This document shows positions 2,290-17,358 of a DNA stretch of 59,893 nt, in pieces. The stretch comes from a virus. Taxonomy: Duplodnaviria > Heunggongvirae > Uroviricota > Caudoviricetes. The translations under genes and the position numbers were made by a program. The stretch lies in the IMG/VR virus record IMGVR_UViG_3300011399_000001, positions 64,001-123,893 of that record; one strand, written 5' to 3'. Positions within the stretch are counted from its first letter, which is position 1. The number at the start of each line of letters is the position of its first letter. The notes below the pieces were generated by a model that was given only the letters and a program-made list of their open reading frames with translations, did no database searches and was not told the origin of the DNA.

Positions 2290-2598
2290 ATGAGAGTTGC
2301 TGAAATTTGTCCAGATTGCGCCACATATATAAATGCGGCTTGTATTATTTATAATGGGGAATACCTCCCTGCTATAAATGTATCTCCTTTAGACTCCCTA
2401 GATGATATTCTTGAGAATATTAATGATGCTTATTCTGCATTAGAGGGGGAGGGGGAGCCTACTACAATTCCTCTATTTGTGGGGCAATTATATGTGGACA
2501 CTGAAAACCTCAATTTATACATAGGTCTTGGTACAGATAGTGTAAATTGGGGCTTAATTGGTCCTATTACAACTACTTCTACTACTACAACTTCTTAA
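2290..2598 (+). CDS. Small Cys-rich virion protein with Thr/Ser-rich C-terminal tail
   Basis: CPDCATYINAACIIYNGEYLP module shared with the next gene; ends ITTTSTTTTS. Confidence 0.6.
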   Translation: MRVAEICPDCATYINAACIIYNGEYLPAINVSPLDSLDDILENINDAYSALEGEGEPTTIPLFVGQLYVDTENLNLYIGLGTDSVNWGLIGPITTTSTTTTS

Positions 2599-2603
2599 AT
2601 AAC

Positions 2604-4238
2604 ATGCAGGTGGTTTGTACATCCGATAGCTGTGAATTTGTAATAAGTAGTAAATGCGTCTTCTATGAAGGGGCAGCATTGCCTTATACTGATATTGCCA
2701 CAAATGATACTGTGGAGACAGTAATTCAAAAACTTGATGAAGCTATTCAAAACGGCATAGGAGGGGGTAGTGTAACATCTGTCACTGCTTCTCTACCACT
2801 TGTTTCATCTGGAGGAGATACCCCTAATATATCAATGCCTGTAGCTACAGGAGCCACAAATGGTTATCTTTCTGCCACTAATTGGAACACTTTCAATAAT
2901 AAGCAAGATGTTATTTCTTTAACTACATTAGGAACTTCAGGAGTAGCTACGTTTGCAGGAAACATCTTAAACATCCCAAATTATCAAGTAAATAGTGATG
3001 ATTTCTGGAAAACGACAGGCACTTCTACTATTACAGATGGTACGATTATCACTATTCCATATACAGCAGCTCCTAATAGTTTTATATTAAAAGGAGCAGA
3101 AGGAATCAATCCCGATAGTCCTGTAGAACTTCACGTAGGGCATTTTGACGATGGACTTGATTATGGGCCATTTGTAACAATAATAGGATATAGTAGTCTT
3201 TTAAACAATGATTATGCTGAACTTAATGTACAAGCTAGTCAAGTTAGAATTACTTGTAATTCAAGTTCTACAGGACAAGGTTTAGAACTGATAGCTTCTG
3301 ATGGAGGAGGAGGAAATCCTACTATGGTTTTTAGTGATACTAGAACTGTTAAAGTAGGTGTTCAATATGCTGGAGATTATTCTGCGGATGTGACAGCTAG
3401 AACATTAATAGATAAGGGAACTGCTGATGGTTTGTATATTCAAACAGTATTAACAGCAAATACTAGTATTACAGGAGCTTTTAACTTTGAAATAGGTACT
3501 GCTGTAAGTGCTGTTAATAATATAAGATTAGATGCATCAAGCACTGTTGTAATAGATTCAGGGTCTTCTGTTACTATTTCTACTGTAAATGTTGTTCTTA
3601 CTACTTCTTCTCAAGTAGTTCTTGATACTAATAATGGAATTAGTATAAGAAATTCAGCAACACCTCCAGGTGTTGGAGCAGCAGGAGAAAATGTTGTATA
3701 TACAAAAGATGTAGCTTCTTCTTCTGAACTTTTTGTAATGAATGAAGCAGGTGTGGAAACAAAGCTTTCGGGAAATAAAGGTAATGCTGGAGGAACTTTA
3801 AATGTTGATACAACTACTGTTGGTAATACTGGTGGAGGAGAAGATGATTTGAAACTCTATAATGTACCTGCTAATACTTTATCTGTTGATGGACAATCGT
3901 TGATTGCTTATTGTGCCGGAACATACGCAGCAAATGTAAATAATAAGGTAATAAAATTATATCTTGGATCAACTGTCTTATTTAATAGCGGATCGGTGGC
4001 AGATTCAGGTCTATCGTGGTTAATTAGGGTAGAGATTATCAGGACAGGGGCTTCTTCTCAGAAATGTATTGTAGTATTTACACATGGAGCAACAACAGAT
4101 GCCATAGTCTATATCACCGCAGCAGAGACATTATCTGGTGCATTAGATTTAAAAATTACAGGAGAATCACTTGCTTCTGCCACAAATGATGTAGTTTCTG
4201 AAATGTTTACTGTTAGATGGGAGGCAGAAGAAATATAA
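2604..4238 (+). CDS. Tail fibre-like protein
   Basis: Likely start ATG 2604 (MQVVCTSDSC...). N-terminal Cys module paralogous to the upstream gene; Gly/Thr/Ser-rich beta-fibre composition (GGGSVTSVTA). Confidence 0.7.
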   Translation: MQVVCTSDSCEFVISSKCVFYEGAALPYTDIATNDTVETVIQKLDEAIQNGIGGGSVTSVTASLPLVSSGGDTPNISMPVATGATNGYLSATNWNTFNNKQDVISLTTLGTSGVATFAGNILNIPNYQVNSDDFWKTTGTSTITDGTIITIPYTAAPNSFILKGAEGINPDSPVELHVGHFDDGLDYGPFVTIIGYSSLLNNDYAELNVQASQVRITCNSSSTGQGLELIASDGGGGNPTMVFSDTRTVKVGVQYAGDYSADVTARTLIDKGTADGLYIQTVLTANTSITGAFNFEIGTAVSAVNNIRLDASSTVVIDSGSSVTISTVNVVLTTSSQVVLDTNNGISIRNSATPPGVGAAGENVVYTKDVASSSELFVMNEAGVETKLSGNKGNAGGTLNVDTTTVGNTGGGEDDLKLYNVPANTLSVDGQSLIAYCAGTYAANVNNKVIKLYLGSTVLFNSGSVADSGLSWLIRVEIIRTGASSQKCIVVFTHGATTDAIVYITAAETLSGALDLKITGESLASATNDVVSEMFTVRWEAEEI

Positions 4239-4243
4239 AAATA

Positions 4244-4275
4244 TTTGTAATTATATAATAAAATGTGTATATTTG
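4244..4275 (+). promoter_or_regulatory. Bacteroidota sigma70-type promoter
   Basis: TTTG (4244-47), 20 nt, TATATTTG (4268-75). Confidence 0.8.
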
Positions 4276-4295
4276 CGAAAAATTAAACCAATTAT

Positions 4296-4664
4296 ATGTT
4301 AGAATTTAAAAAATCAGAATTAGAGGCAGTCTTACTTACTATTGCTGCTTATTCTCCTCCAAAAGAAGGAGAGCAACAAAGAATGGTGAGTGGTCTTTTA
4401 AAAGAAAATATTACTCTAGGGACAAAAAGACGCCTTCAGAAAATTCATAAACTTACTCAGGAGAGTTATAAGGAGCTTATTGAAGATGTAAAAGAGGCTC
4501 AAAAAGAATGTGGAGAAGATAAAGAAAGACTTGAAAAAGAGCTTAAACTTCTATTGGAAGAAGTAGTTAAAGTTGATGCAGAACCTATTCAATTGTCTCA
4601 AATTGAAGGAATTTCCACAACAGAAAATTACAATTTTGAAATTATAGAGAAATTTGCAATCTAA
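4296..4664 (+). CDS. Hypothetical helical protein (possible tail assembly chaperone)
   Basis: Track ORF with A-rich leader, follows a tail fibre gene; function is positional inference only. Confidence 0.5.
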   Translation: MLEFKKSELEAVLLTIAAYSPPKEGEQQRMVSGLLKENITLGTKRRLQKIHKLTQESYKELIEDVKEAQKECGEDKERLEKELKLLLEEVVKVDAEPIQLSQIEGISTTENYNFEIIEKFAI

Positions 4665-4999
4665 TGGAAGACATAACCACTTTAAAACAAGAACTCCAAT
4701 CTATGGAAAGCAGACTTACAGAAATGGAAGATAAAATAGATTCTATAGATGGTAAGCTTACACAAGTGGTAGATGCCATTTTAGGAAATCCTTTAACAAA
4801 ACAGGGGGGTTTTATTGCTGAAATTGAAGATTTAAAAAAACAAATTGCTTATTTAAAAGAAACTATCGAAACTCTACAAGAAAAACAGAGAAAAACTGAT
4901 AAGTTTAAAGATAGGGTAATTTGGGCATTAATGGTTATAGGAATATTGGCAGGGATAATTAAATTTCTTACCACTGTCTATGCAAATATAAATATATGA
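4664..4999 (+). CDS. Coiled-coil protein with C-terminal TM helix (holin/XhlA-like lysis protein)
   Basis: Heptad-rich N-terminus, C-terminal VIWALMVIGILAGIIKFL; lies within a membrane-protein cluster. Confidence 0.5.
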   Translation: MEDITTLKQELQSMESRLTEMEDKIDSIDGKLTQVVDAILGNPLTKQGGFIAEIEDLKKQIAYLKETIETLQEKQRKTDKFKDRVIWALMVIGILAGIIKFLTTVYANINI

Positions 5000-5364
5000 A
5001 CGAAAACTTTTTTGTAGTTCTGTCTATTATAGGAGCAATTATATTGTTCTTTACATTTAGAGCTATAAAAAGAGCTATTTTAAGACTTTTTGGAGGAAGT
5101 ATAGAACTTCCAGAAGCAGCAGGAGTGTTATTCGCAGGACTTTTTACATACATGGTGCTTAAGGAGGGACAGAGAACACACGAATGGCATTATTATAATG
5201 AACTTTATATATTCTTTACTGCTAGTGCTGCAATGATAGGACTTGGTTTAAAGCAAGTTTTAGAGACATATAAAGAAATAAGACTTGGAAATTCAGGTAA
5301 TTCCACAGTAACAAATACACAAACGCAGGAAAGAAAAGTGACAAATGAGCCAGATATACAATGA
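4996..5364 (+). CDS. Multi-TM membrane protein, putative holin
   Basis: Three hydrophobic segments and a charged C-terminus; ATGA-coupled. Confidence 0.5.
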   Translation: MNENFFVVLSIIGAIILFFTFRAIKRAILRLFGGSIELPEAAGVLFAGLFTYMVLKEGQRTHEWHYYNELYIFFTASAAMIGLGLKQVLETYKEIRLGNSGNSTVTNTQTQERKVTNEPDIQ

Positions 5365-5966
5365 AATTAAATTTAATCGCTTATATTACAATTGCTCTTC
5401 TTATTTGTGTAATTTTATTACAGAATAAGTGTTCTTCTCCTACTCCTCCTAAAGAAACAAGAGATACGGTGGTTGTTTATAAAACAATACATGATACTAT
5501 TCTTGGCGAAATTGTGTATTTAAAAGGAAAAACTGTCAAAGATACTGTATGGCTTACATCAGAAGAAAATAAACCTGATAGTACATATGAAGGACTTTTG
5601 AAACAATATAACTTCTTGGGAAATAAATATTACGAAAAAAGGGTTTTTAAGACAGATTTTCCAATAGCAGATTATGGCTCTGTGACAGTATATGATACAA
5701 TTAAAGCAAATTCTCTAATAGGAAGTTCTATAATTACTGATTTAAACATCCCAATCACTACAATCACTGTAACAAAAGAAGCTCCCATTAAAAGACAACT
5801 TTATGTAGGTTTTAGTTTAACAGGTAATTCTCCAGCCCCTATTAATGGAGTGTATGTAGATGTAATATTTAGAACAAAGAAAGACAGACTTTATGGTGTG
5901 TCTATGGGGTATAATGGAGAACCAATATATAAAATAAGCCTATTGTGGCCTTTGAAAATAAAATGA
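5361..5966 (+). CDS. Putative spanin-like envelope protein
   Basis: N-terminal hydrophobic anchor ending near a Cys, DTV/HDTI repeats, C-terminal alternating beta strands as in Bacteroidota phage spanin candidates. Confidence 0.5.
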   Translation: MKLNLIAYITIALLICVILLQNKCSSPTPPKETRDTVVVYKTIHDTILGEIVYLKGKTVKDTVWLTSEENKPDSTYEGLLKQYNFLGNKYYEKRVFKTDFPIADYGSVTVYDTIKANSLIGSSIITDLNIPITTITVTKEAPIKRQLYVGFSLTGNSPAPINGVYVDVIFRTKKDRLYGVSMGYNGEPIYKISLLWPLKIK

Positions 5967-6370
5967 ACGAAATAATAGCTTTAATAATTCTTTGTATTCC
6001 TCTTATTTGGGAACTTATAGATGACAAAAAAGGAGACCTCCACCCTAATAAAGATTGGGTAATAAGAGGAGGTTTAATGTTAATAACTTCTGCTCTTACA
6101 TTATTGTTTGTTGATAGAGGATTTTTACAAGCTTTTGGTATGTCTTTTGGTATATTCGTTCTCTTTTTCCCGTACCTCTATAATATTTTCAATAAGAAAA
6201 AACCCTGGTATAATTATTTAAGCCTTACCGCTTTTCCTGACAAATTGACAATATGGAGAATGACTCCTTGGTCAGTAAGAATGGGAATATTGGGAATTAT
6301 ATTTGGTATAGGGCTTTCGTTTTATTTTTGGGAAGAAATAATGGCAATTAATTACCCTTACGGACGTTAA
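5963..6370 (+). CDS. Membrane protein
   Basis: ATG 5963 (MNEIIALIILC) overlaps the previous stop; four hydrophobic segments. Confidence 0.55.
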   Translation: MNEIIALIILCIPLIWELIDDKKGDLHPNKDWVIRGGLMLITSALTLLFVDRGFLQAFGMSFGIFVLFFPYLYNIFNKKKPWYNYLSLTAFPDKLTIWRMTPWSVRMGILGIIFGIGLSFYFWEEIMAINYPYGR

Positions 6371-6371
6371 A

Positions 6372-6503
6372 ATGGCAAAATCAACAAAATCTAATAAGCA
6401 AGTAGGTAAATTGTCTTTTGGGAAGAAAAAAATAGGTGTTCATAAAAAACATAAAGGTCCAAAAGAGAAAAATGTAAAGAAATATCAGGGCCAAGGCCGT
6501 TAA
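6372..6503 (+). CDS. Small basic protein (43 aa) ending KKYQGQGR
   Basis: Read manually, not in track: MAKSTKSNKQVGKLSFGKKKIGVHKKHKGPKEKNVKKYQGQGR. Confidence 0.65.
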   Translation: MAKSTKSNKQVGKLSFGKKKIGVHKKHKGPKEKNVKKYQGQGR

Positions 6504-6515
6504 AATAATAAAAAT

Positions 6516-7619
6516 ATGAGTGTTCCAAATAGACGAATAGGACAACCTTCAAGCGTAGAAGCTCTACTTTTACACGATATATTGAAGCAAATAGAAAGAC
6601 TTATACAGGTTGCTTCTGCTGGAGGGGGTGGAGGCTCTGGTACTGTCACTTCTGTATCAGTAGTGTCGGCCAATGGTTTTGCTGGTTCTGTAGCCACAGC
6701 TACCACTACTCCAGCTATCACTATCTCCACATCTGTTACAGGAATAATAAAAGGAGATGGAACAGCAATAAGTGCTGCTGTTGCAGGAACAGATTATTTA
6801 GCTCCAAATGGTAGTGGGGCAGCCCTTACAGGTGTATATTTATTAGCATCAGGAGGTACATTAACAGGAAATAATACAATTGTACAAGCAGGTTTTAATA
6901 CTACACATACAGGTATAGGAAGAGTTACTTTTTCTCCTACAACAGGAGGAGGTTCGGTTGCAGGTTTAAATGTTGGAACCGTTGCTGGCAATCCTGCAAC
7001 TGGAACAGATGGAGATATATGGCATAATAGTGCTTCTGGTTTCTTTATAAGAAACCTAGGTACAACTAGATTATTAAGTTATTATGCCTCTGGAGGAGGA
7101 ACAATTGGTAGAATACCTATATGTAATGGTACATCAACAGGTTTATTAGTAGATACTGCTAATCTTACATTTAGTACAAATAGACTTTTAGGAACTGTCT
7201 TATATTTAACATTGAGTGCTGGTACTGCTACTGCTGGAACAGCTCCTTTAAAATTAACCTCAGGTACTGTTTTAACTACACCTGAAACTGGATCGATAGA
7301 ATACGATGGTACTAATTATTTTGGTTCTGTATCAACAACTAGATATACATTTGCTAAAACACTTACAAATACAGCTACTTTGGATTTTGGTTCCACAGCA
7401 GCAAGCTCTTCTACAGATTTAACAATGACTGTAACAGGTGCTGCTGACGGTGATCCTGTAATAGTTACACCTCCAAATGGTTCTACTTTTGCAAATAGTA
7501 TATATACCGCTTGGGTTAGTGCTGCTAATACAATAACTGTAAGGTTTAGTAATCTTGATTTAGTAACTACGAGAGACCCTGCAAGTGGAACTTTTCGTGC
7601 AGTGGTATTTAAATATTAA
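6516..7619 (+). CDS. Tail fibre-like protein
   Basis: GGGGSGTVTSVSVVSANGFAG fibre motif; C-terminal TATLDFGS...TVRFSN...DPASGTF tip-like domain. Confidence 0.75.
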   Translation: MSVPNRRIGQPSSVEALLLHDILKQIERLIQVASAGGGGGSGTVTSVSVVSANGFAGSVATATTTPAITISTSVTGIIKGDGTAISAAVAGTDYLAPNGSGAALTGVYLLASGGTLTGNNTIVQAGFNTTHTGIGRVTFSPTTGGGSVAGLNVGTVAGNPATGTDGDIWHNSASGFFIRNLGTTRLLSYYASGGGTIGRIPICNGTSTGLLVDTANLTFSTNRLLGTVLYLTLSAGTATAGTAPLKLTSGTVLTTPETGSIEYDGTNYFGSVSTTRYTFAKTLTNTATLDFGSTAASSSTDLTMTVTGAADGDPVIVTPPNGSTFANSIYTAWVSAANTITVRFSNLDLVTTRDPASGTFRAVVFKY

Positions 7620-7640
7620 TAACATAAAACAATAAATAAA

Positions 7641-8282
7641 ATGGCACTAAAAAACGATTTAAATGCTCAATTTAAGAGCGATTTAGTTAATTATAACGGG
7701 GCTTCGGATGCTCAAGCTTATATTTTACTTGGTGAGACAGTAGTGGGTGATACTCCTGTTAGAATATATCATTATGATGCTAGTTCAACAGCTACTCCAG
7801 ATGGTGAAAATGTATTAAATGCTGTAGGTATGGGAGTTGGGAGATTTATTAAAGATTTCTTACAAGAATTCAATCCCGGATTAGCCACTGTAGCTTCTAC
7901 AGGAGATTATGATGATTTATTAAATAAACCTACTATTCCTGGCCAAGTAAATAGTGATTGGAATAGTGCATCAGGTGTTTCTGAAATATTAAATAAACCT
8001 GTTATTAAAAGACAGGAAACTTATTCTGGAACTAGTAACTCTTCTGGAGTATATACCGTAACATTTAGTACTTCTTTTTCGGTAGCTCCTAATATACAAG
8101 CTAATATCATTAATCAATCTAGTACAGATCAATTTTTAAGAATTACTAACGTCAGTGCTACAGGATTTACTATTAATATATTTGAAAGGGCGCCGGTTAC
8201 TCTTTTAGGAATAAGTTTATTGCCAGGAAATGTGAATAATGTAAATGGAGCATCTATAGATGTTCTTATAACCGAAAAATAA
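7641..8282 (+). CDS. Tail fibre-like protein with LNKP repeats
   Basis: TGDYDDLLNKPTIP / SDWNSASGVSEILNKP repeats; C-terminal VTFSTSFSVAPNI...VSATGFTI domain. Confidence 0.7.
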   Translation: MALKNDLNAQFKSDLVNYNGASDAQAYILLGETVVGDTPVRIYHYDASSTATPDGENVLNAVGMGVGRFIKDFLQEFNPGLATVASTGDYDDLLNKPTIPGQVNSDWNSASGVSEILNKPVIKRQETYSGTSNSSGVYTVTFSTSFSVAPNIQANIINQSSTDQFLRITNVSATGFTINIFERAPVTLLGISLLPGNVNNVNGASIDVLITEK

Positions 8283-8283
8283 T

Positions 8284-8385
8284 ATGGCAATTAGAACAAA
8301 ACAAAGTGGATGGTCAACAAAAGAAAAACTTTTGTGGGAAATTTCCAAAAAATTGGAACAATTAATTAAAGTAATAAGTCAATAA
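8284..8385 (+). CDS. 33-aa stand-alone module paralogous to the N-terminus of the 6516 fibre
   Basis: Read manually: MAIRTKQSGWSTKEKLLWEISKKLEQLIKVISQ versus MSVPNRRIGQPSSVEALLLHDILKQIERLIQV. Confidence 0.6.
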   Translation: MAIRTKQSGWSTKEKLLWEISKKLEQLIKVISQ

Positions 8386-8387
8386 TT

Positions 8388-8801
8388 ATGTCATATTTCA
8401 TAAAAACAGGTTTTTGGGAAAAAGCCGCAAAAGGATATAAAGGATGGTTGAATTTAGAGGATGCTTTAAATCAAGACTTTGTAGCTGTATCTAATAGTGA
8501 TGTAGCATTAACAGATGCTGCAACAATGGATATATCTTCTACAAAACAAACTCTAACCTCTTCTTCTGCTACAAGAACATTTACAATTTCATATGTAGGA
8601 GATGATAGTACAATAGAGGTAATATTAAACACTACATCAGCCACATATACATTTCCTGCTACAGCATTATGTGTATCAGAAGGAGTGGCTTCAGGAGACA
8701 ATTTACTTGTATTAGCAGGAGTTTCAGGAGACAAATATATAATTGGTATTAAAAAAATAGGTTCGGCATATTATGTTGTAGCCAAAAATTTTGGACAATA
8801 A
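8388..8801 (+). CDS. Virion/tail-associated protein
   Basis: Track ORF; Ser/Thr-rich beta composition within the tail cluster. Confidence 0.55.
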   Translation: MSYFIKTGFWEKAAKGYKGWLNLEDALNQDFVAVSNSDVALTDAATMDISSTKQTLTSSSATRTFTISYVGDDSTIEVILNTTSATYTFPATALCVSEGVASGDNLLVLAGVSGDKYIIGIKKIGSAYYVVAKNFGQ

Positions 8802-9877
8802 TGAGTTTTTTTCATAGTTTACTTTGTAGTTCTTCTGATAGACTTAGTCTTATTGGAGTTAATAATATGATTGCTGGAGGAGATTCATATACAGAAGGAT
8901 TATATGCAACAAGTACAGCAAATAGATATATCAATATATTCCAGACAACAAAAGGAATTTCTACATTAACTAATGTAGGACAAAATGGAGCAGGTGCTGT
9001 TGAACAAATAAATGCCATTAAAAATCTCAGTTATACTTCGTCTTCTACATTATTAACAGCAATGTTAGGACTTAATGAAATTAGAAGAGGAGGTTCAGGA
9101 GCTAAAACTTTAAAACAAATTGAGGCAGGATTTTTGTATTATATTAATAAGCATATAGGAACGAATAGAGTTGCTTCAGGGTCATCTTCTGTTACTAGAA
9201 CTGGTACATTTCTTAGTACTGATGCAACTGCAAATGGAGCTGTTTATGGAGCAGGTGCTTTTCCTGGCAATGTTTCATCTTATACAACAACTCAAAATTC
9301 TCAATGGGAATATTCATTTTCAGGAACAAAAATTGGATTTGTTACTTTTGGTGATGACGGTACATTTAATTATGGACGTATTGATATTTATATTGATAAT
9401 ATACTTCAGGAAACTATGGATTTGTCAAGTTGGGCATCTGGATTAGAAACTCCTGCAACTTTCTTTAATAGAGTGATTCCAGTTTCTAAAATGATTTTTG
9501 GATTAACAGATACATCACATACACTCAAGATAGTGGCTAAGGATGTGGGAAAAATTGTATTCGTAGATTATTTCTTCACTCCTGCTTCTCCTGTTAATAC
9601 TGGACCTATATTATTCGGAGAAATACCATATTTGACAACTGCTGGCTATGCTACTTTTTCACCAACTTATAATAGCGGCTCAGTTGCAGCAAGTGATTCT
9701 GCAAGTGCAATTATACAATCTCTTGTCGCAACGTATAAATTGCTCGGTTACAAAATAGCATACGTTCCTATAAATAATTTTCTTGATTTGACAACAAGTT
9801 TAGACCCTGATTTGGTTCACAGAAATGATATTGGTCATGCTCAAATGGCAACAGCATTCTTATCTAAAGTTACATAA
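8801..9877 (+). CDS. SGNH/GDSL-type hydrolase with inserted beta-sandwich domain
   Basis: Block I GGDSYTEG, block II GQNGAG, block III MLGLNE, block V DLVHRNDIGH. Confidence 0.75.
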   Translation: MSFFHSLLCSSSDRLSLIGVNNMIAGGDSYTEGLYATSTANRYINIFQTTKGISTLTNVGQNGAGAVEQINAIKNLSYTSSSTLLTAMLGLNEIRRGGSGAKTLKQIEAGFLYYINKHIGTNRVASGSSSVTRTGTFLSTDATANGAVYGAGAFPGNVSSYTTTQNSQWEYSFSGTKIGFVTFGDDGTFNYGRIDIYIDNILQETMDLSSWASGLETPATFFNRVIPVSKMIFGLTDTSHTLKIVAKDVGKIVFVDYFFTPASPVNTGPILFGEIPYLTTAGYATFSPTYNSGSVAASDSASAIIQSLVATYKLLGYKIAYVPINNFLDLTTSLDPDLVHRNDIGHAQMATAFLSKVT

Positions 9878-9896
9878 TATATTAAAAACCAACTAA

Positions 9897-10916
9897 ATGA
9901 GAGAATTAAAATTTTTATGCGTCCAACCAGATGACGATTATTATATCTGGCAGGTACATTTATGGCTAAATAGTCTAAAAACAATAGGACATATTGAAAA
10001 AGCCATTGTTTTAATATTCACTCCTGATTTCAGAGAATTAAATGTTAAATGGAAAGACCTAGAGATTTTATTCCCTGAAGCAGAGTTTACCTATTATAAA
10101 GACGAACATAAGCTTTCCAAATTATTAGGACTTTACATTCCTATTCTACGTCCTTATACTTTAATGAGATATTTTAAGGATAAGTCAAAAATGTCTGAAA
10201 AGGCTATTTTCTATTGTGATTGTGACATTCTGTTTACAGAGAAATTTGATATTTCTTCATTTATACAAGATGAAGTTTGCTATCTTTCTAACACTCTCTC
10301 ATATATAAATGCTACATATTTTGATAGCAAAATCAAGGATGTAAAACCTGAAATGTTGGAAGAATATAAAACAAAGGATATTTTACAAGAAGTTACAGAA
10401 ATGGTTGGTATTAACAGGGAGATGGCTGAAAAATGGAATTTACATTCTGGAGGAGCTCAATATTTGTTAAAAAACGTAGACTATAAGTTCTGGGACAAGG
10501 TGATAACTGATTGTATTAAAATCAGAACCTATCTACAAAGAATAAACAAACAATTCTTTGAAAACGAAAATAAAGGTTTTCAAAGTTGGTGTGCTGATAT
10601 GTGGGCTGTTTTATGGAATCTTTGGCTGTTAGACAAAGAGACCAAGGTGGTGAAGGAAATGGATTTTGCATGGGCTTCAGACCCTATTTCTAAGCTAGAA
10701 AATGTAGGAATATTACATAATGCAGGTATTACCTCTTCTTTACAGGGAGATATTCCTGTATTCTATAAAGGAACCTATCATCAAGGAAAGTCTCCCCTCT
10801 CTGACCCCTATTTAGAAGAGGTATTAAATAACGAAAAAAGTAAAACTCTCAGTAGTTGGTATTATGCTGATAAACTTTCAAAATTAAAAGATATACATAA
10901 TTTATATGGAAAATAA
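9897..10916 (+). CDS. GT-A-fold glycosyltransferase (DxD)
   Basis: FYCDCDILF DxD motif, GGAQYLLK, WCADMWAVLWN, ILHNAG. Confidence 0.65.
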   Translation: MRELKFLCVQPDDDYYIWQVHLWLNSLKTIGHIEKAIVLIFTPDFRELNVKWKDLEILFPEAEFTYYKDEHKLSKLLGLYIPILRPYTLMRYFKDKSKMSEKAIFYCDCDILFTEKFDISSFIQDEVCYLSNTLSYINATYFDSKIKDVKPEMLEEYKTKDILQEVTEMVGINREMAEKWNLHSGGAQYLLKNVDYKFWDKVITDCIKIRTYLQRINKQFFENENKGFQSWCADMWAVLWNLWLLDKETKVVKEMDFAWASDPISKLENVGILHNAGITSSLQGDIPVFYKGTYHQGKSPLSDPYLEEVLNNEKSKTLSSWYYADKLSKLKDIHNLYGK

Positions 10917-11757
10917 TAAAAAAGACCTAAAATCATTTATGCGAGTTGATGGTCAAGGTCGTGTAATAGCTGGTTCAAATATTCTTAGGAAAAATAAACC
11001 TAAGGTTGGTAATTGGATACAAATTCAAGCATATGCTTGTTGTGACCCAGATTTCCCACTTACTCCTGGGGGGGGAGCCACTCCTGATTTTGTAGAAGAA
11101 GTACTTGGTGTTGGAAATAGTCCATTTGTTTGTGATACTTTAGGAACGGCTGAAGATTTTGCCGTATTATCTGATCAAGCAATTAGTAATACAGGAAATA
11201 CCGTAATTACTGGTGATTTAGGACTTCACCCTGGAACAGCAGTAACAGGTTTCCCACCTGGACTAGTAGTAGGAGAACAACATATTACAGATGCTGTTGC
11301 ACAACAAGCACAAATAGATGCTACAGCAGCATTTACTTGTTTAAACGATTTAACTGTAACTGATAGTGTTGGTGCAGATATTGGAGGAGAAACATTAGTA
11401 GCAGGAGTATATTCTGTTGGAAGTTCTTTAGGTATAACCGGAGAATTAACATTGGATGGTGCTAGTAATCCAGATAGTGTATGGGTATTTAAAATTCCAT
11501 CAACGTTGATTACAGCCACAGATGCTCTTGTGACATTAATTAATGGAGCCAGTGCATGTAATGTATATTGGTTAGTAGGAAGTTCTGCTACATTAGGTAC
11601 AAATACAGAAATGGTTGGTAATATTATAGCTGTAACATCTATTACATTAACTACTGGAGCAACTCTAACAGGTAGAGCAATAGCTCTTGGAGGTGCTGTT
11701 ACTTTAGACAGTAATGAAATTACATCTTGTGAATGTACTGTTAACCCTTGTTCTTAA
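10906..11757 (+). CDS. DUF3494 ice-binding-like protein with N-terminal phage module
   Basis: FAVLSDQAISNTGNTVITGDLGLHPGTAVTGFPPG ... LTLDGASNPDSVWVFKIPSTL ... ACNVYWLVGSSATLGT ... GRAIALGGAVTLDSN closely follows the DUF3494 consensus. Confidence 0.9.
   Translation: MENNKKDLKSFMRVDGQGRVIAGSNILRKNKPKVGNWIQIQAYACCDPDFPLTPGGGATPDFVEEVLGVGNSPFVCDTLGTAEDFAVLSDQAISNTGNTVITGDLGLHPGTAVTGFPPGLVVGEQHITDAVAQQAQIDATAAFTCLNDLTVTDSVGADIGGETLVAGVYSVGSSLGITGELTLDGASNPDSVWVFKIPSTLITATDALVTLINGASACNVYWLVGSSATLGTNTEMVGNIIAVTSITLTTGATLTGRAIALGGAVTLDSNEITSCECTVNPCS
11068..11075 (+). repeat. G8 homopolymer in the linker of the ice-binding protein gene
   Basis: cctGGGGGGGGagcc, encoding PGGGA between the two domains. 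Confidence 0.9.
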
Positions 11758-11769
11758 ATAAAAAATATT

Positions 11770-11949
11770 ATGGCAAATAATCAAAAAATGAAAGCTTTTG
11801 TAAGATATGATGAAACAGGAAGAATTATTCCTGGAAGTCTCATATTAAGAAGAAATAAACCTACAGAAAAAGGGTGGGTGCAAGCACAAGCTTATGAGTG
11901 CTGTGATCCTTTTTTACAAACAACTTCCACTACTACTACAGCACCTTAA
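11770..11949 (+). CDS. 59-aa stand-alone module paralogous to the IBP N-terminus, with Thr-rich tail
   Basis: Read manually: MANNQKMKAFVRYDETGRIIPGSLILRRNKPTEKGWVQAQAYECCDPFLQTTSTTTTAP. Confidence 0.75.
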   Translation: MANNQKMKAFVRYDETGRIIPGSLILRRNKPTEKGWVQAQAYECCDPFLQTTSTTTTAP

Positions 11950-11969: not shown

Positions 11970-12623
11970 ATGAGAATAATAGTAGCTGTTGTAGTACACA
12001 ATAGGTTTAAAAATATTGAAGAATGGGTGAGATGCTGGAATCTTTGTGAAAAGGAAAACACAGAATTCATTGTTATTCATAATTTCAAAACTGAAGAGGA
12101 CAAGCAAACATATGAGGAATTATGTAAAAATAACAATATTACATATATTCCCCGTAAGAATATAGGGATGGATATTGGTGCTCTACAGGATGTCTGTAGA
12201 GGTCGTCTGGAAGGATTTCCCAATCAATGGGACTATCTTTTATGGTGTACAGATGATGTCATCCCAATGTCCAAGAAGTTTATTTCTTATTATATGAGAG
12301 AAATACAACGTCCTAATGTAGGGGTTGTATGTTTAGAAGTGTCTAAAGAAGTTAAACTACATATTAGAACAACAGGGTTTATAATGAGTCAGGAAACAGC
12401 AAGCAGAATATCATTTCCTGTAGAAACTATCACTACTAAAGACCATTGTTATGAATTTGAACATAGAAGCAGGAATGCTTTTTATGAACAAATTAAAAGG
12501 CAAGGAAAAACCGTTAAACAAGCACATTCCAATTTTAAACATGATGTTTTATGGGATATTCATATAAGACATGCATTAGATAGATGGGAAGAACATTATA
12601 AAGAATTTCCTCTTGCAAAATAA
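11970..12623 (+). CDS. RgpF-like/GT-A glycosyltransferase, paralogue 1
   Basis: RKNIGMDIG motif, WCTDDV acidic motif; aligns end to end with 13278..13922. Confidence 0.55.
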   Translation: MRIIVAVVVHNRFKNIEEWVRCWNLCEKENTEFIVIHNFKTEEDKQTYEELCKNNNITYIPRKNIGMDIGALQDVCRGRLEGFPNQWDYLLWCTDDVIPMSKKFISYYMREIQRPNVGVVCLEVSKEVKLHIRTTGFIMSQETASRISFPVETITTKDHCYEFEHRSRNAFYEQIKRQGKTVKQAHSNFKHDVLWDIHIRHALDRWEEHYKEFPLAK

Positions 12624-13269
12624 CATCACTATAATATCCCCTATTTATAATACATTTCCTGAAATTATAGGAAGTATGATAAATCAGACATATAGTAATT
12701 GGACTCTATTATTGATACATGATGGGCCTAATTCTACTAATTTACAGGCTTTAATTGATGTTATTAATGATCCTCGTATTAAATATATTGTCACTCCTGA
12801 GAGAAAGAATATTTGGGGTCATCCTATAAGGAAGTGGGCAATAGATAATATAGACGAATTAGCTCCAAATACAGAATATATTGTAATTACAAATCCTGAT
12901 AACCATCATACACCTCATTATCTTGAATATCTTTTAAAGGGATTTAAAAATCCTTCTATTGTAGCAAGTTATTGTTCTCAGTTTGTTCATGCATACGAAT
13001 CATGGCAAAAAACTACAATAGTAGAAAATATGACAAAATCAACAGATAAAATTGATTGGGAAGTATATAAATATGGTATAATAGATACAAGACTCAAACT
13101 TGGTTATCTAGATGCTGGTTGTGTTATGGTTAAGAAAAATGTAGCTAAAGAAATAGGATGGAATTCATTAAATCATGAAGCAGATTGGGATTTCTTTAAT
13201 ACAATAATAACTAAATATGGAGAAGATAAATGGCAAATAGTACGCGGTTGCTTATTTATACATAATTAG
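12613..13269 (+). CDS. Family 2 glycosyltransferase
   Basis: ITIISPIYN...SMINQTYSNWTLLLIHDG GT2 N-terminal signature; TTG start. Confidence 0.8.
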   Translation: MQNNITIISPIYNTFPEIIGSMINQTYSNWTLLLIHDGPNSTNLQALIDVINDPRIKYIVTPERKNIWGHPIRKWAIDNIDELAPNTEYIVITNPDNHHTPHYLEYLLKGFKNPSIVASYCSQFVHAYESWQKTTIVENMTKSTDKIDWEVYKYGIIDTRLKLGYLDAGCVMVKKNVAKEIGWNSLNHEADWDFFNTIITKYGEDKWQIVRGCLFIHN

Positions 13270-13277
13270 CCTGAAAA

Positions 13278-13922
13278 ATGAATATAATTATAGTTGTCTG
13301 TATATATGATAGGTATGAAAATCTTAGAAAATGGCTACATGCTTGGCAACAATGTGAACAATTAGAAGCCAAATTAATTTTTGTGAATAACATTCCTGAA
13401 GGAGCTACAGATGTGGTTTTTTGGAGGGAATTTTGTGAAAATAAGGGGGCTGAATATATAGAAAGAGAGAATATAGGCTTTGAAACAGGAGTTATACAGG
13501 ATGTTATAACAGGTAAAATAGAGAAAGAATGGGATATTTTATTCTTTTTTACTGATGATACTTTACCTATTACAAAAAATTTCCTACCTTTGTATATTGA
13601 AGAGCTTAAAAAGCCAGATGTGGGGGTGGTATGTATGGAGATTTCAGGGAGATATACTCCTCATGTACGTACTACAGGATGGTGTATAAAAAAAGAGGAG
13701 GCTGATAAATTAAAGTTTGTTAGTTCTTCTATAACAAAGAAAGAAGAATGTTATGATTTTGAACATACAGGAGGTGAAAATACCTTAATGTCTCAAATTC
13801 TTAATATGAACAAAATGGTGATACAACAGTCAAATATTGAAAATAGTGCAGTTTGGGACACACATAATAGTAAAATAAACAGATGGAAAGAATGGCATGA
13901 CACCTTTCCAGGATATAAATAA
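13278..13922 (+). CDS. RgpF-like/GT-A glycosyltransferase, paralogue 2
   Basis: RENIGFETG, FFTDDT, VGVVCME, HVRTTG, CYDFEH shared with paralogue 1. Confidence 0.55.
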   Translation: MNIIIVVCIYDRYENLRKWLHAWQQCEQLEAKLIFVNNIPEGATDVVFWREFCENKGAEYIERENIGFETGVIQDVITGKIEKEWDILFFFTDDTLPITKNFLPLYIEELKKPDVGVVCMEISGRYTPHVRTTGWCIKKEEADKLKFVSSSITKKEECYDFEHTGGENTLMSQILNMNKMVIQQSNIENSAVWDTHNSKINRWKEWHDTFPGYK

Positions 13923-13928
13923 ACCAAT

Positions 13929-15854
13929 ATGAAAATCGTATTATTCGGAGTTTCTGGAACATTAGGAAAAGAGCTCAAAAAACTAAATCCTGAATTAATT
14001 TGTCCTACACATTCTCATGTAGATATTACATTGGGGGGGAGGGTGATGGAATACATTAGAATGCATAAACCAGATGTGGTAATTAATGCTGCTGCTATTC
14101 TAAACAATTCTCCTTCTGAAAAAGCAATAGATGTTAATATTGTAGGGGCTGCTAATTTGGCAATGGCATGTATAAAGAATAAAGCAAGACTTGTATATAT
14201 TTCTTCAGATTATGTCTATAAAGGAGATAGGGGAAACTATTCAGAAGAGGATGAACTCCTCCCTTTTAATTTTTATGCATGGACTAAATTAGGAGGTGAA
14301 TGTTCTGCAAAAGGTGTTGAAAATCACCTTATTATTCGTACTTCCTTTGGTGCATCAGAATTCCCCTACCCACAAGCTTTTAGTGATAAATTCTCCTCTA
14401 AAGATTATGTAGATGTGATAGCTCCTTTAATATTAGAAGCAGCTTTAAGTGATTTAACAGGTGTTTTAAATATAGGGACAGATAAAAAGACATTGTACGA
14501 ATATGCTAAAAAACGTACTCCAAATGTATTCTCTATAGAAATATCACAGAGTCCCTTCTCCTCCCCTTTAGATACTTCTCTTAATTTACAGAAATGGACA
14601 GATTATAAGACAAATTCCTCTGTAAAACTTCATAATAAATGCCGTTGTTGTAATTCCTATCGCTTCACTAAGTATTTAGACTTAGGGGCGCTTCCGCTTG
14701 TTAACAATTTAGCTAATACAAAAGAAGAGGCCCTCTCCAAAGATAGATTCCCTCTTCAAATCATGTTTTGTGAGGAATGTGGACTTTCACAGCTATCGGT
14801 GGTTGTATCTCCTGAAAAACTCTTCTCTTATTATACATACAGAAGTGGTATAAATGGAGGGTATGTGAAACATTGTAGGAAAATGGCTAAAACGCTAAAA
14901 GATAAATACAATTTAAGTGAAAAGTCGTTTATAATAGATATAGCAGGAAATGATGGAAGTCTTTTAAAACAGTTTAAAGAGGAGATAGGATGTGATGTTC
15001 TAAATATTGATCCTGCAACAAATCTTGCAGAAATAGCGAGAAGTAATGGAATACCTACTTGGCCTGTTTTTTGGGAATATGAAGTTGCTCAAACGTTACG
15101 CTTGAAAGGAGATTATGCAGACATGATTGTAGGCACAAATGTATTCGCCCACGTAGATGATATAAAGGAGTTTTTAGAAGGGGTTAAAATAGTCTTAAAA
15201 CATAAGGGGGTGCTGGTGCTTGAATTTCCCTATTTAATTGACTTTATAGAGAACTTAGAATTTGACACCACTTACCATGAACATCTTAGTTATATGAGCC
15301 TACAACCTCTATATAAGCTCTGTAGCACTCTTAATTTAGACATCATTGATGTAGAGAAGCAGGACATTCATGGAGGTACTGTGAGGGTTATAATAGGCCA
15401 TAAAGGGGTTCTCCCAATAACCCCTAATGTACATCATTTTCTACAGGAGGAAAAGAATGCTGGTTTTGGTGAAATAGAGAGGTATAAGGATTGGGAGCTC
15501 TCTGTTAATAGTTTAATTCATGAGCTAACTTTTTCTCTTCGTCATATAAAGGCCAAAAATCACAAAGTTGCAGCATTTGCAGCTTCAGCTAAAGGAAATA
15601 CTCTTCTAAATTCAGCTAAAATAACCTTTGATACAATTGATTATATTGTAGATCAGACACCTGAGAAAGTGGGGAAATTTAGTCCTGGAACAGGAATCCC
15701 TATTGTTGATATAGACGAATTAATTAAAAATCCTCCAGACTATCTCATTATTTTAGCTTGGAATTTTAAAAACGAGATAATGGAAAAATGTAGAAAATTG
15801 GGCTACAAAGGGAAATTTATAATTCCCATCCCTAAATTTGAAATTATAAATTAA
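13929..15854 (+). CDS. Fusion of RmlD-like NDP-4-keto-sugar reductase and NDP-hexose C-methyltransferase
   Basis: N-half GVSGTLG, YISSDYVY, YAWTK (YxxxK). C-half CRCC/CEEC Zn site, DIAGNDG, NVFAHV, YHEHLSY, HGGTVR, ASAKGNTLL, KVGKFSPGTGIPI. Confidence 0.9.
   Translation: MKIVLFGVSGTLGKELKKLNPELICPTHSHVDITLGGRVMEYIRMHKPDVVINAAAILNNSPSEKAIDVNIVGAANLAMACIKNKARLVYISSDYVYKGDRGNYSEEDELLPFNFYAWTKLGGECSAKGVENHLIIRTSFGASEFPYPQAFSDKFSSKDYVDVIAPLILEAALSDLTGVLNIGTDKKTLYEYAKKRTPNVFSIEISQSPFSSPLDTSLNLQKWTDYKTNSSVKLHNKCRCCNSYRFTKYLDLGALPLVNNLANTKEEALSKDRFPLQIMFCEECGLSQLSVVVSPEKLFSYYTYRSGINGGYVKHCRKMAKTLKDKYNLSEKSFIIDIAGNDGSLLKQFKEEIGCDVLNIDPATNLAEIARSNGIPTWPVFWEYEVAQTLRLKGDYADMIVGTNVFAHVDDIKEFLEGVKIVLKHKGVLVLEFPYLIDFIENLEFDTTYHEHLSYMSLQPLYKLCSTLNLDIIDVEKQDIHGGTVRVIIGHKGVLPITPNVHHFLQEEKNAGFGEIERYKDWELSVNSLIHELTFSLRHIKAKNHKVAAFAASAKGNTLLNSAKITFDTIDYIVDQTPEKVGKFSPGTGIPIVDIDELIKNPPDYLIILAWNFKNEIMEKCRKLGYKGKFIIPIPKFEIIN
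14033..14039 (+). repeat. G7 homopolymer near the 5' end of the RmlD-methyltransferase gene
   Basis: ttGGGGGGGagggtg. Confidence 0.85.
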
Positions 15855-15861
15855 ATATATT

Positions 15862-16257
15862 ATGGCTGAATTATTATTCTCAACAGAAACAACTTTTTCA
15901 TTAGAAACAGTGGCTGGTAAATTGACATATTTTCATGAACAATTACATTTATTACATTGGCAGACAACAAGTTATGCTGAACATCAAGCTCTTGGAAGTT
16001 TGTATGAATATGTTCATGGTTTTAAAGATGGGGTGGTTGAAAAACTTATGGGATATTTAGGAAGGCGTCCAAAAGCATTTAAAATACCTCTGATAGTAGA
16101 TAATATCACTCCTATAATGGTGGTGGATAATTTGTGTGATTTTGCATATGATTTATATCTTTGGGCAGGAAAAAATGACTATTGTGATGTAGAGAATTTA
16201 GCTCAAGAGTTGAGCGGAGAGGGTGCAAAAACTAAATATTTGTTAACTTTGTCATAA
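15862..16257 (+). CDS. Ferritin/Dps-like four-helix protein (DUF5856-like)
   Basis: QLHLLHWQTTSYAEHQALGSLYE...D..VE motif. Confidence 0.7.
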   Translation: MAELLFSTETTFSLETVAGKLTYFHEQLHLLHWQTTSYAEHQALGSLYEYVHGFKDGVVEKLMGYLGRRPKAFKIPLIVDNITPIMVVDNLCDFAYDLYLWAGKNDYCDVENLAQELSGEGAKTKYLLTLS

Positions 16258-16286: not shown

Positions 16287-17069
16287 ATGATTTGTATTTA
16301 TAAAATTACTTCTCCTACTAACAAAATTTATATTGGTCAAAGTTGGGATTGGGTAAAAAGAAAAAGTGTTTATAAAAGAAGTGCTTGTCCTAATCAATTG
16401 TATTTATATAATTCTCTTAAAAAATATGGATGGGAAGCTCACAAAATAGAAATATTATTAATTTTTACAAATAAAATATCTCAAGAATCTCTTGATTTTT
16501 ATGAAACTTATTGGTGGAAATTTTATAAAAAATTAGGATTTAAAATGTTAAATATTAAAAAACCTGGAAGTAATGGTAAATTATCTGAAGAAACTAAAAA
16601 GAAGTTAAGTAAAGCGTTAAAAGGAAGAAAGTTGTCTCAGGAATGGAAAGATAATATAGGAAAAGGATTAAAGGGTAGAACTGTTTCAGAAGAAACTAGA
16701 ATAAAGATAGGATTAGGTAATAAAGGTAAAATTATATCAGAAGTATCTAGAGAAAAAATTAGGAATAAATTAACTGGTAAAAAACTTTCAAAAGATATAA
16801 TTGAAAAAATAAGAATATCTCATATTGGTAAGAAATGTTCTGAAAATACAAAATTAAAAATATCGAAAGCTAATACTGGTGTTAAAAATGGTATGTTCGG
16901 TAGAACTGGACTTTTAAATAAAGGTTCTAAAAAAGTAATAGATATTGCTACTGGTACTATTTTTCATTCTATTTCAGAAGCAGAAAAAACTTTAAACATT
17001 AATAAAGGAGTATTAGTTAATAAACTGAACGGTAGAACTAAAAATAACACTTCTTTGCAATATGTGTAA
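16287..17069 (+). mobile_element. GIY-YIG homing endonuclease with NUMOD3 repeats
   Basis: CIYKITSPTNKIYIGQS; repeated SEETKKKLSKALKG motifs. Confidence 0.9.
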
Positions 17070-17358
17070 AATACTACTAAAATATTTTCCAGAAACTATC
17101 TATGATAATGATATAATATATTTTAAACATTTGGAAGCAATTATAGATTCTGTTGATGAATTATCTTCTTTACAGATAACGAAGTCAAACTATAGTCTAC
17201 TTTTCAGACTAGCGCCTTCTCTTCCTAAATATAACAATATGCTTATAAAAGAAATATTGAAACTACATAATTTATATAATATACATTTAGACATGAGTAA
17301 ATCAATAAAAACAAGTGCTACAATAAATTTCAAAATAAATTTGGAAGAGAATAAATAA
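17062..17358 (+). CDS. Hypothetical protein
   Basis: Track ORF overlapping the upstream stop. Confidence 0.6.
   Translation: MCKILLKYFPETIYDNDIIYFKHLEAIIDSVDELSSLQITKSNYSLLFRLAPSLPKYNNMLIKEILKLHNLYNIHLDMSKSIKTSATINFKINLEENK

Follow-up and report, generated by a model that had tools for sequence, protein, structure and literature searches.

What do short genes gain by sharing their N-terminal ends with much longer neighbours? The question is raised by a cassette between positions 2290 and 11949 of a 59,893-nucleotide stretch of viral DNA (the window; positions 64,001 to 123,893 of IMG/VR record IMGVR_UViG_3300011399_000001). An initial annotation had recognised three shared modules there, which we call A, B and C, and had proposed that they dock short peptides at repeated virion sites, either empty or carrying swappable cargo. 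All six genes, with the motifs attributed to them, were present at the positions assigned to them, and the three shared modules were borne out by profiles built from other genomes. Our preferred reading, to which we give a probability of roughly 60%, is that modules A, B and C, joined by a fourth named D, serve to attach the outer virion proteins of an aquatic crassvirus clade by their N-terminal ends. The cassette and its companions are as follows (window coordinates).

2290..2598, plus strand: A1, module A (residues 3-50) followed by a fibre-type beta domain of ~45 amino acids (aa) and a Thr tail
2604..4238, plus strand: A2 (544 aa, start ATG 2604), module A (residues 1-49) with long fibre-like cargo
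6516..7619, plus strand: B-long, module B (residues 1-34, predicted amphipathic helix), Gly linker and fibre-like cargo
7641..8282, plus strand: tail-fibre-like protein without any of modules A-D (phrog_17509, 2.7e-23; phrog_9729 tail fibre, 1.4e-12)
8284..8385, plus strand: B-short (B33), 33 aa, bare, no Thr tail (profile E 4.9e-15)
8388..8801, plus strand: D gene, module D (residues 1-28) with 110-aa cargo (profile E 9.5e-14)
8801..9877, plus strand: SGNH/GDSL-like protein, its N-terminus recurring on two tandem genes of related locus L333
9897..10916, plus strand: phrog_4417 protein with DxD motif, candidate Thr-directed protein O-glycosyltransferase
10906..11757, plus strand: C-long, module C (residues 1-48), Pro/Gly linker and DUF3494 ice-binding-like domain (residues 87-273)
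11770..11949, plus strand: C-short (C59), 59 aa, module C with poly-Thr tail
11970..13922, plus strand: three GT2 or GT2-like genes (11970, 12613, 13278), a variable addition, rare in relatives
13929..15854, plus strand: RmlD-like and sugar C-methyltransferase fusion (sugar-donor synthesis), rare in relatives
15862..16257, plus strand: DUF5856 gene, conserved cassette companion (144 loci)

Only module C was convincing by pairwise comparison within the genome. The two C ends were 58% identical over 48 aa (E 8e-16; z=30 against 2000 shuffles), whereas the B pair was weak (E 0.11-0.16 in the genome; z=7.3 against 2000 shuffles), and for A a pairwise z of 7.8 against 2000 shuffles stood beside a tblastn search of the genome that gave no link between the two window genes. 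Profiles were therefore made from related loci, of which about 320 were gathered, with every sequence of this genome left out. They found both C genes (3e-25 and 1.4e-23), B at 8284 (4.9e-15) and 6516 (3.6e-7), A1 (5.8e-19) and A2 (2.1e-16), and they exposed at 8388 the additional module D (9.5e-14). All three original modules are thus real, but the set was incomplete, having overlooked D and two further A genes, A3 and A4, which lie outside the window (genome 30534 and 31666). Searches of Pfam and PHROGs gave no named match to any module, and PDB sequence searches with modules A, B and C, the A3 and A4 proteins and the 9897 profile gave nothing meaningful. Module C had no match among isolated phages and no Atlas neighbour, and the best fold-search match of its model (predicted local distance difference test score 80) reached Z 2.6.

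Placement and cargo of B, C and D were surveyed in about 160 related loci. The module began within three residues of Met1 in ~129 of 130 B proteins, ~220 of 229 C proteins and all 26 D proteins. Behind it, the C-terminal parts of 129 B, 221 C and 26 D proteins, together with those of A, formed 75 clusters, among them collagen, LRR_5, DUF285, Fib_succ_major, Ice_binding, Peptidase_S74 and LCIB-like domains. Modules that were 100% identical occurred with differing cargo, and cargo was shared across B and C (93% over 170 aa) and across B and D (82% over 251 aa). The ice-binding-like domain that the window carries on C matched PF11999 along profile positions 1-208 (8.4e-59; 199 bits against a curated cut-off of 28.7) and was found on a D module in locus L083 (37% over 108 aa). 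That relatives of B, C and D swap cargo within and between modules is strongly supported by these observations; the proposal of swappable cargo fared decisively well, alternative fusions being abundant in the homologues. An LbR_Ice_bind match among the cargo was probably an artefact of Thr composition and was not used. An unusual cargo was the LCIB-type carbonic anhydrase match (PF18599, 6.6e-18) on one module-bearing protein.

Short and long B forms stood together in 28 of 42 loci, and short and long C forms in 20 of 46, counts that, like the other co-occurrence counts given here, are biased because module C or A1 served as bait for collecting the loci. Among five complete genomes, B and C were present in all and D in three; one had only short frames of B, C and D, so that cargo is dispensable there while the anchor is retained. 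Tandem paralogues of the modules occur in the clade. Seven proteins carried two C copies in tandem and one carried tandem B (loci L091, L143, L152, L065, L038, L043 and L147), a hint of paired binding sites. In relatives, module D carried cargo of 40-1320 aa; several genomes had it twice, and locus L202 had a short form of 71 aa.

Short B and C are conserved protein-coding genes under purifying selection. Differences at codon positions 3/1/2 numbered 7971/4750/2491 for B and 32260/13537/6902 for C (summed over non-independent pairs), and the start context was conserved, with A at -3 in 88-94% of the short genes. Most of them end in a Thr run (59 of 61 short B and 64 of 74 short C; 123 of 135 together), the tails being ~55% Thr. 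Window gene C59 is a typical short form of this kind. The idea of empty short forms therefore survives for B33 only, since typical short B and C carry poly-Thr tails and A always has two domains. Among the short C genes without a Thr tail, most have repeats of an acidic LLxED motif, which amount to a minimal form of alternative cargo (L089:6363-6596 and nine similar genes). Thr runs also end the muzzle-like protein and 69 of 70 homologues of the auxiliary capsid protein. In this genome, such runs were seen in the auxiliary capsid protein, the muzzle-like protein and the gene that follows it (genome 28347-29507, 36975-41717 and 41720-42253).

The virus record is a complete genome of 123,893 bp with direct terminal repeats, and the window is its second half. 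By its sequence the 124-kb genome is that of a crassvirus-like Bacteroidota phage, because it has profile matches to the crassvirus major capsid protein (PF23898, 4.2e-27, gene 24937 of the genome) and the ring 2 protein (PF25702, 2.6e-15), terminase and portal matches, and crassvirus gene order. Further profile matches were to phrog_6547 and phrog_6681; the genes in crassvirus order are those for ring proteins, portal, terminase, muzzle and giant cargo proteins, the last (1580, 3794 and 1627 aa) assigned by size and order. Family start codons are preceded by A at -3 and, near -12, by a patch rich in A; no Shine-Dalgarno motif is seen, a combination that we take to be the Bacteroidota start pattern. 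The nearest isolates are distant relatives, 22-28% identical in capsid and portal. Closest in the capsid protein is Lbo-JY46 (PP438436, locus L167), which has crassvirus gene order and module A; it was deposited with a cyanobacterial host, an assignment that may merit a check. The module cassette itself lies at the end of a long plus-strand late region, downstream of the giant cargo genes.

Module A differs in its organisation from the other modules. The 102-aa gene A1 had been read as the module standing alone; it is in fact module A (residues 3-50) followed by a conserved second domain of ~45 aa and a Thr tail. A1 orthologues are mostly 92-141 aa long, some 163-622 aa, and keep the second domain; A2 orthologues (537-2523 aa) nearly always lie directly downstream of A1. 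Each of the four A genes belongs to an orthologue group of its own, with a fixed position and a signature start, and a profile of A3 orthologues only still found A2 (4e-5), A4 (5.5e-4) and A1 (0.014). Grouped at 50% identity, the family comprises 791 clusters, of which the top 150 matched from residue 1 almost without exception. In the A1 model the second domain was confidently predicted as a small beta domain and the module-A half had low confidence; residues 49-95 gave weak fold-search matches (Z 3.5-3.9, root-mean-square deviation ~2.4 over ~44 residues) to tailspike, Mtd and collagen XV trimeric domains. Comparison of this domain with the gp21 anchor of crAss001, a phage of the same virus order, did not support an equivalence.

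A3 homologues were present in 72 of 80 and A4 homologues in 66 of 80 hub-gene loci, directly behind hub-like genes where mapped. The genes preceding A3 and A4 resemble the crAss001 tail hubs by order and, weakly, by sequence: a hub-like gene was 33% identical to gp38 over 63 columns (pairwise E 0.0046) in conserved order, and the THB assignment to gp39 was weak (E 0.024). In Lbo-JY46, module A opens three tandem genes behind hub-like genes, one of them annotated as a tail fibre. Judged from these sequences, module A is a fibre N-terminal domain serving four dedicated paralogues, with no empty-versus-loaded pair, because it forms four orthologue groups, opens the A2 fibres, lies behind hub-like genes in A3 and A4 and heads a tail fibre in Lbo-JY46. 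Between the two hub-like genes lies a gene for a Cys-rich peptide of 35-50 aa (genome 30147-30281; L005:14148-14282), conserved in 76 of 80 loci and possibly a third hub component.

The poly-Thr tails direct attention to gene 9897, which lies between short B and the C genes. Its product matched phrog_4417 (8.5e-53, profile 1-272 of 293), and residues D108 and D110 of the DxD motif are invariant in the family. A language-model feature search linked it to HPAT (0.97, with the family on 10% of the matched cluster), and its motif order presumably resembles that of HPAT and SGT1. PF23452 gave no match to 9897, to 30 relatives or to eight distant homologues; fusions to GT2, GT32-type or GT6 domains occur in longer homologues. 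In the 144 loci with a 9897 homologue, the next gene downstream was a C gene in 140, and the one just upstream was a short B in 74. Homologues also occur in 77 records of isolated phages, and in nine of nine inspected unrelated phages with phrog_4417, from six host genera, a poly-Thr tract was found on the capsid, tail-tube or a neighbouring protein, the tract of LP65 being Thr/Gln instead of pure Thr.

Close relatives differ in both features at once. In Lactobacillus phages with tail proteins 90-96% identical, the phrog_4417 gene and Thr tails were both present or both absent: iLp84 and R9.1 encode phrog_4417, and their capsid and tail proteins alike bear Thr tails, whereas iLp1308, CL2 and R24.2 (tail proteins 90-91% identical to that of iLp84) have neither, and JNU_P10 lacks both the gene and the tail-protein Thr tract. 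The pair bIL285 and phiRg507T2_3 differs in the same way, and crAss001 and Lbo-JY46 lack both gene and tails. These contrasts are a handful of independent cases and carry no statistic. The 9897 product is thus likely to be a protein O-glycosyltransferase acting on Thr, as far as these associations and the DxD motif indicate. In Enterococcus phage nattely (L339:3746-4007), an unannotated poly-Thr frame of ~60 residues lies between the capsid gene and the phrog_4417 gene; it is possibly a frameshift extension of the capsid protein.

How these parts might work together can be outlined by analogy with crAss001, whose head fibres gp21 and gp29 sit on the capsid. Each module would bind its own kind of repeated site. 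Module A would form a tail-fibre system that attaches or assembles fibres, with four fixed paralogues, two of them directly behind tail-hub-like genes, and B, C and D would sit on the capsid, as gp21 and gp29 do. Module B, predicted to be helical and carrying collagen or fibre cargo, is probably trimeric; C may be a small beta domain holding globular cargo on Thr/Pro linkers. Short B and C would occupy the repeated sites by default and present Thr tails there that the phrog_4417 enzyme, whose gene lies between theirs, would O-glycosylate; the neighbouring GT2 and RmlD-like/C-methyltransferase genes could extend the glycan in this strain. Long forms would originate when duplicated copies recombine immediately after the module, and would display adhesins, here the ice-binding-like domain. 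Virion display of the module proteins is plausible on these grounds, and the arrangement as a whole suggests a modular, partly sugar-coated virion surface.

A more specific version of this scheme is a plug-and-play coat, in which each of several repeated capsid sites has its own small anchor family, whose paralogues compete for it, each particle is a mosaic of glycosylated fillers and cargo-bearing copies, and adhesins move between anchors. We put it forward tentatively, at clearly less than even odds. A competing account holds that the paralogues are dedicated, each with its own site or role; there would then be no competition between short and long forms, and variation would be confined to the cargo end, as in ordinary fibre genes. 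The fixed positions, signature starts and separate orthologue groups of A1-A4 fit such a division of labour, and short B holds a fixed slot before the enzyme gene in 74 loci. In B and C, however, short and long forms share modules at least 90% identical, the number of copies varies between 1 and 3, and in some complete genomes C occurs solely as a short or solely as a long form. Moreover, the short/long state switches 16 times on the B tree and 38 times on the C tree, although both trees (33-48 columns) are poorly resolved and the counts have no shuffle control. We find dedicated roles doubtful. Alternatively, the modules may be oligomerisation domains through which short and long forms co-assemble as mixed trimers or dimers, diluting the cargo, with attachment to the particle being indirect. 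Module B, a predicted amphipathic helix, frequently has collagen behind it, module A ends in a helix, and the seven proteins with tandem C copies within one reading frame would also suit this idea; yet genomes with short forms only would then show nothing but Thr tails, and they retain the genes. On its own this account seems to us unlikely, and it is compatible with the attachment-domain reading.

Two further explanations take the proteins off the particle or the short genes out of function. If the modules were sorting or enzyme-recruitment tags in or on the infected cell, the ice-binding domain would serve host cryoprotection (PMC11515562); the cassette does sit among lysis-like membrane and glycosylation genes, and one cargo is an LCIB-like enzyme domain. 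However, fibre, collagen and adhesin domains dominate the cargo, the modules are charged, unlike signal peptides, and the same Thr tails occur on auxiliary capsid (69 of 70), muzzle and tail-tube proteins, which makes a non-virion role improbable. That the short genes are decaying remnants of duplication is very improbable indeed. It would suit B33, the shortest of 61 short B forms and the only one to lack both a Thr tail and a mini-domain, but dozens of genomes keep short B and C at a fixed position, with coding-type substitutions and Bacteroidota start signals, and close relatives of the window virus carry 40-aa B frames.

Several observations weigh against regarding A-D as virion attachment domains. 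B33 lacks a Thr tail. Module C or A1 was the bait with which the loci were fished, and the related genomes do not count as independent cases. The 9897 product had no hidden Markov model (HMM) match to any glycosyltransferase family. The modules compared at chance level with gp21 and gp29 by HMM and hhalign searches, in which distant homology between such very short domains may escape, and showed no homology to the N-terminal 26 residues of gp22, the fibre of the crAss001 tail hubs. It is by analogy that B, C and D are placed on the capsid and not on the tail.

Other genes around the cassette were also conserved or unusual. The SGNH-like 8801 protein shares the start MSFF.SLL with two differing tandem proteins behind a D gene (L333:11626 and 13817), and this start is possibly a fifth tag or a partner of D. 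The RmlD-like/C-methyltransferase fusion (13929-15854), also present in L333, represents phage-borne branched-sugar synthesis. A 98-aa gene at 17062-17358 accompanies the cassette in 129 loci, and a 43-aa lysine-rich open reading frame (window 6372-6503) has homologues in 28. After the cassette, relatives carry series of small genes that are very rich in lysine and have KKAQ-like starts (L001:6900-9800, L003:5480-8570), and the window lacks them there.

If attachment is the function of these modules, they would name, in a large uncultured aquatic clade, the surface proteins predicted for other crassvirus groups (PMC10172136). Viral ice-binding genes, so far seen as aids to host cryoprotection, would be recast as possible virion-displayed adhesins. 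The anchors are tied to a candidate O-glycosyltransferase family, phrog_4417, that can be tested in cultured phages of Lactobacillus, Lactococcus and Enterococcus; phage virion glycosylation has been reported mainly in mycobacteriophages. Anchors of 30-50 residues that tolerate cargo of up to 1300 aa would also be natural display tags.

Tail fibres, tailspikes and capsid decoration proteins such as T4 Hoc combine a conserved N-terminal attachment part with exchangeable C-terminal parts. In contrast to these, four parallel anchors here trade cargo, and cargo-less versions with a presumed glycan tag stand beside loaded ones. The closest parallel is crAss001, in which the head fibres gp21 (a trimer, anchor residues 1-38) and gp29 (a dimer, residues 1-58) sit in two hexon pockets (PMC10172136), and Bayfield et al. 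2023 expected analogous uncharacterised proteins in other crassvirus groups (PMC10172136). Like gp21 and gp29, the proteins described here belong to the same virus order and join a short N-terminal anchor to a separate C-terminal binding domain. In crAss001, too, more than one anchor type is used, two of them for two types of capsid pocket. However, crAss001 has one gene per anchor and no bare or poly-Thr forms, whereas here there are paralogue arrays with ~70 cargo types. The crAss001 tail hubs gp38/gp39 carry the fibre gp22, anchored by residues 1-26 (PMC10172136); similarly, hub-like genes are present here, followed by two module-A genes, but module A is Cys-rich, unlike the gp22 N-terminus, and gp22 is encoded behind the portal gene, not the hub genes.

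In mycobacteriophages, phage-encoded glycosyltransferases are reported to go together with glycans attached to the C-terminal ends of capsid and tail-tube subunits (Freeman et al. 2023, as described in PMC12619734 and PMC11256854). Here, the candidate initiating enzyme would be phrog_4417, the acceptors would be poly-Thr tails on small anchors and the host an environmental Bacteroidota. The likeness of 9897 to plant HPAT (GT95, PF23452) and SGT1 (GT96) consists of language-model features and the DxD motif, with no HMM match, and the acceptor here would be Thr. Viral PF11999 genes have been read as host cryoprotection aids (PMC11515562), whereas the ice-binding-like domain of this phage lies behind a presumed virion anchor. 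Our literature searches, within their limited coverage, gave no account of what phrog_4417 does, of the modules or of poly-Thr tails on virions. Thus, the anchor-plus-cargo principle is known from the crAss001 head fibres, while the anchor families, cross-anchor shuffling and glycan-tag fillers are undescribed in the literature searched, and the survey of anchors and cargo exchange is what the present analysis adds.

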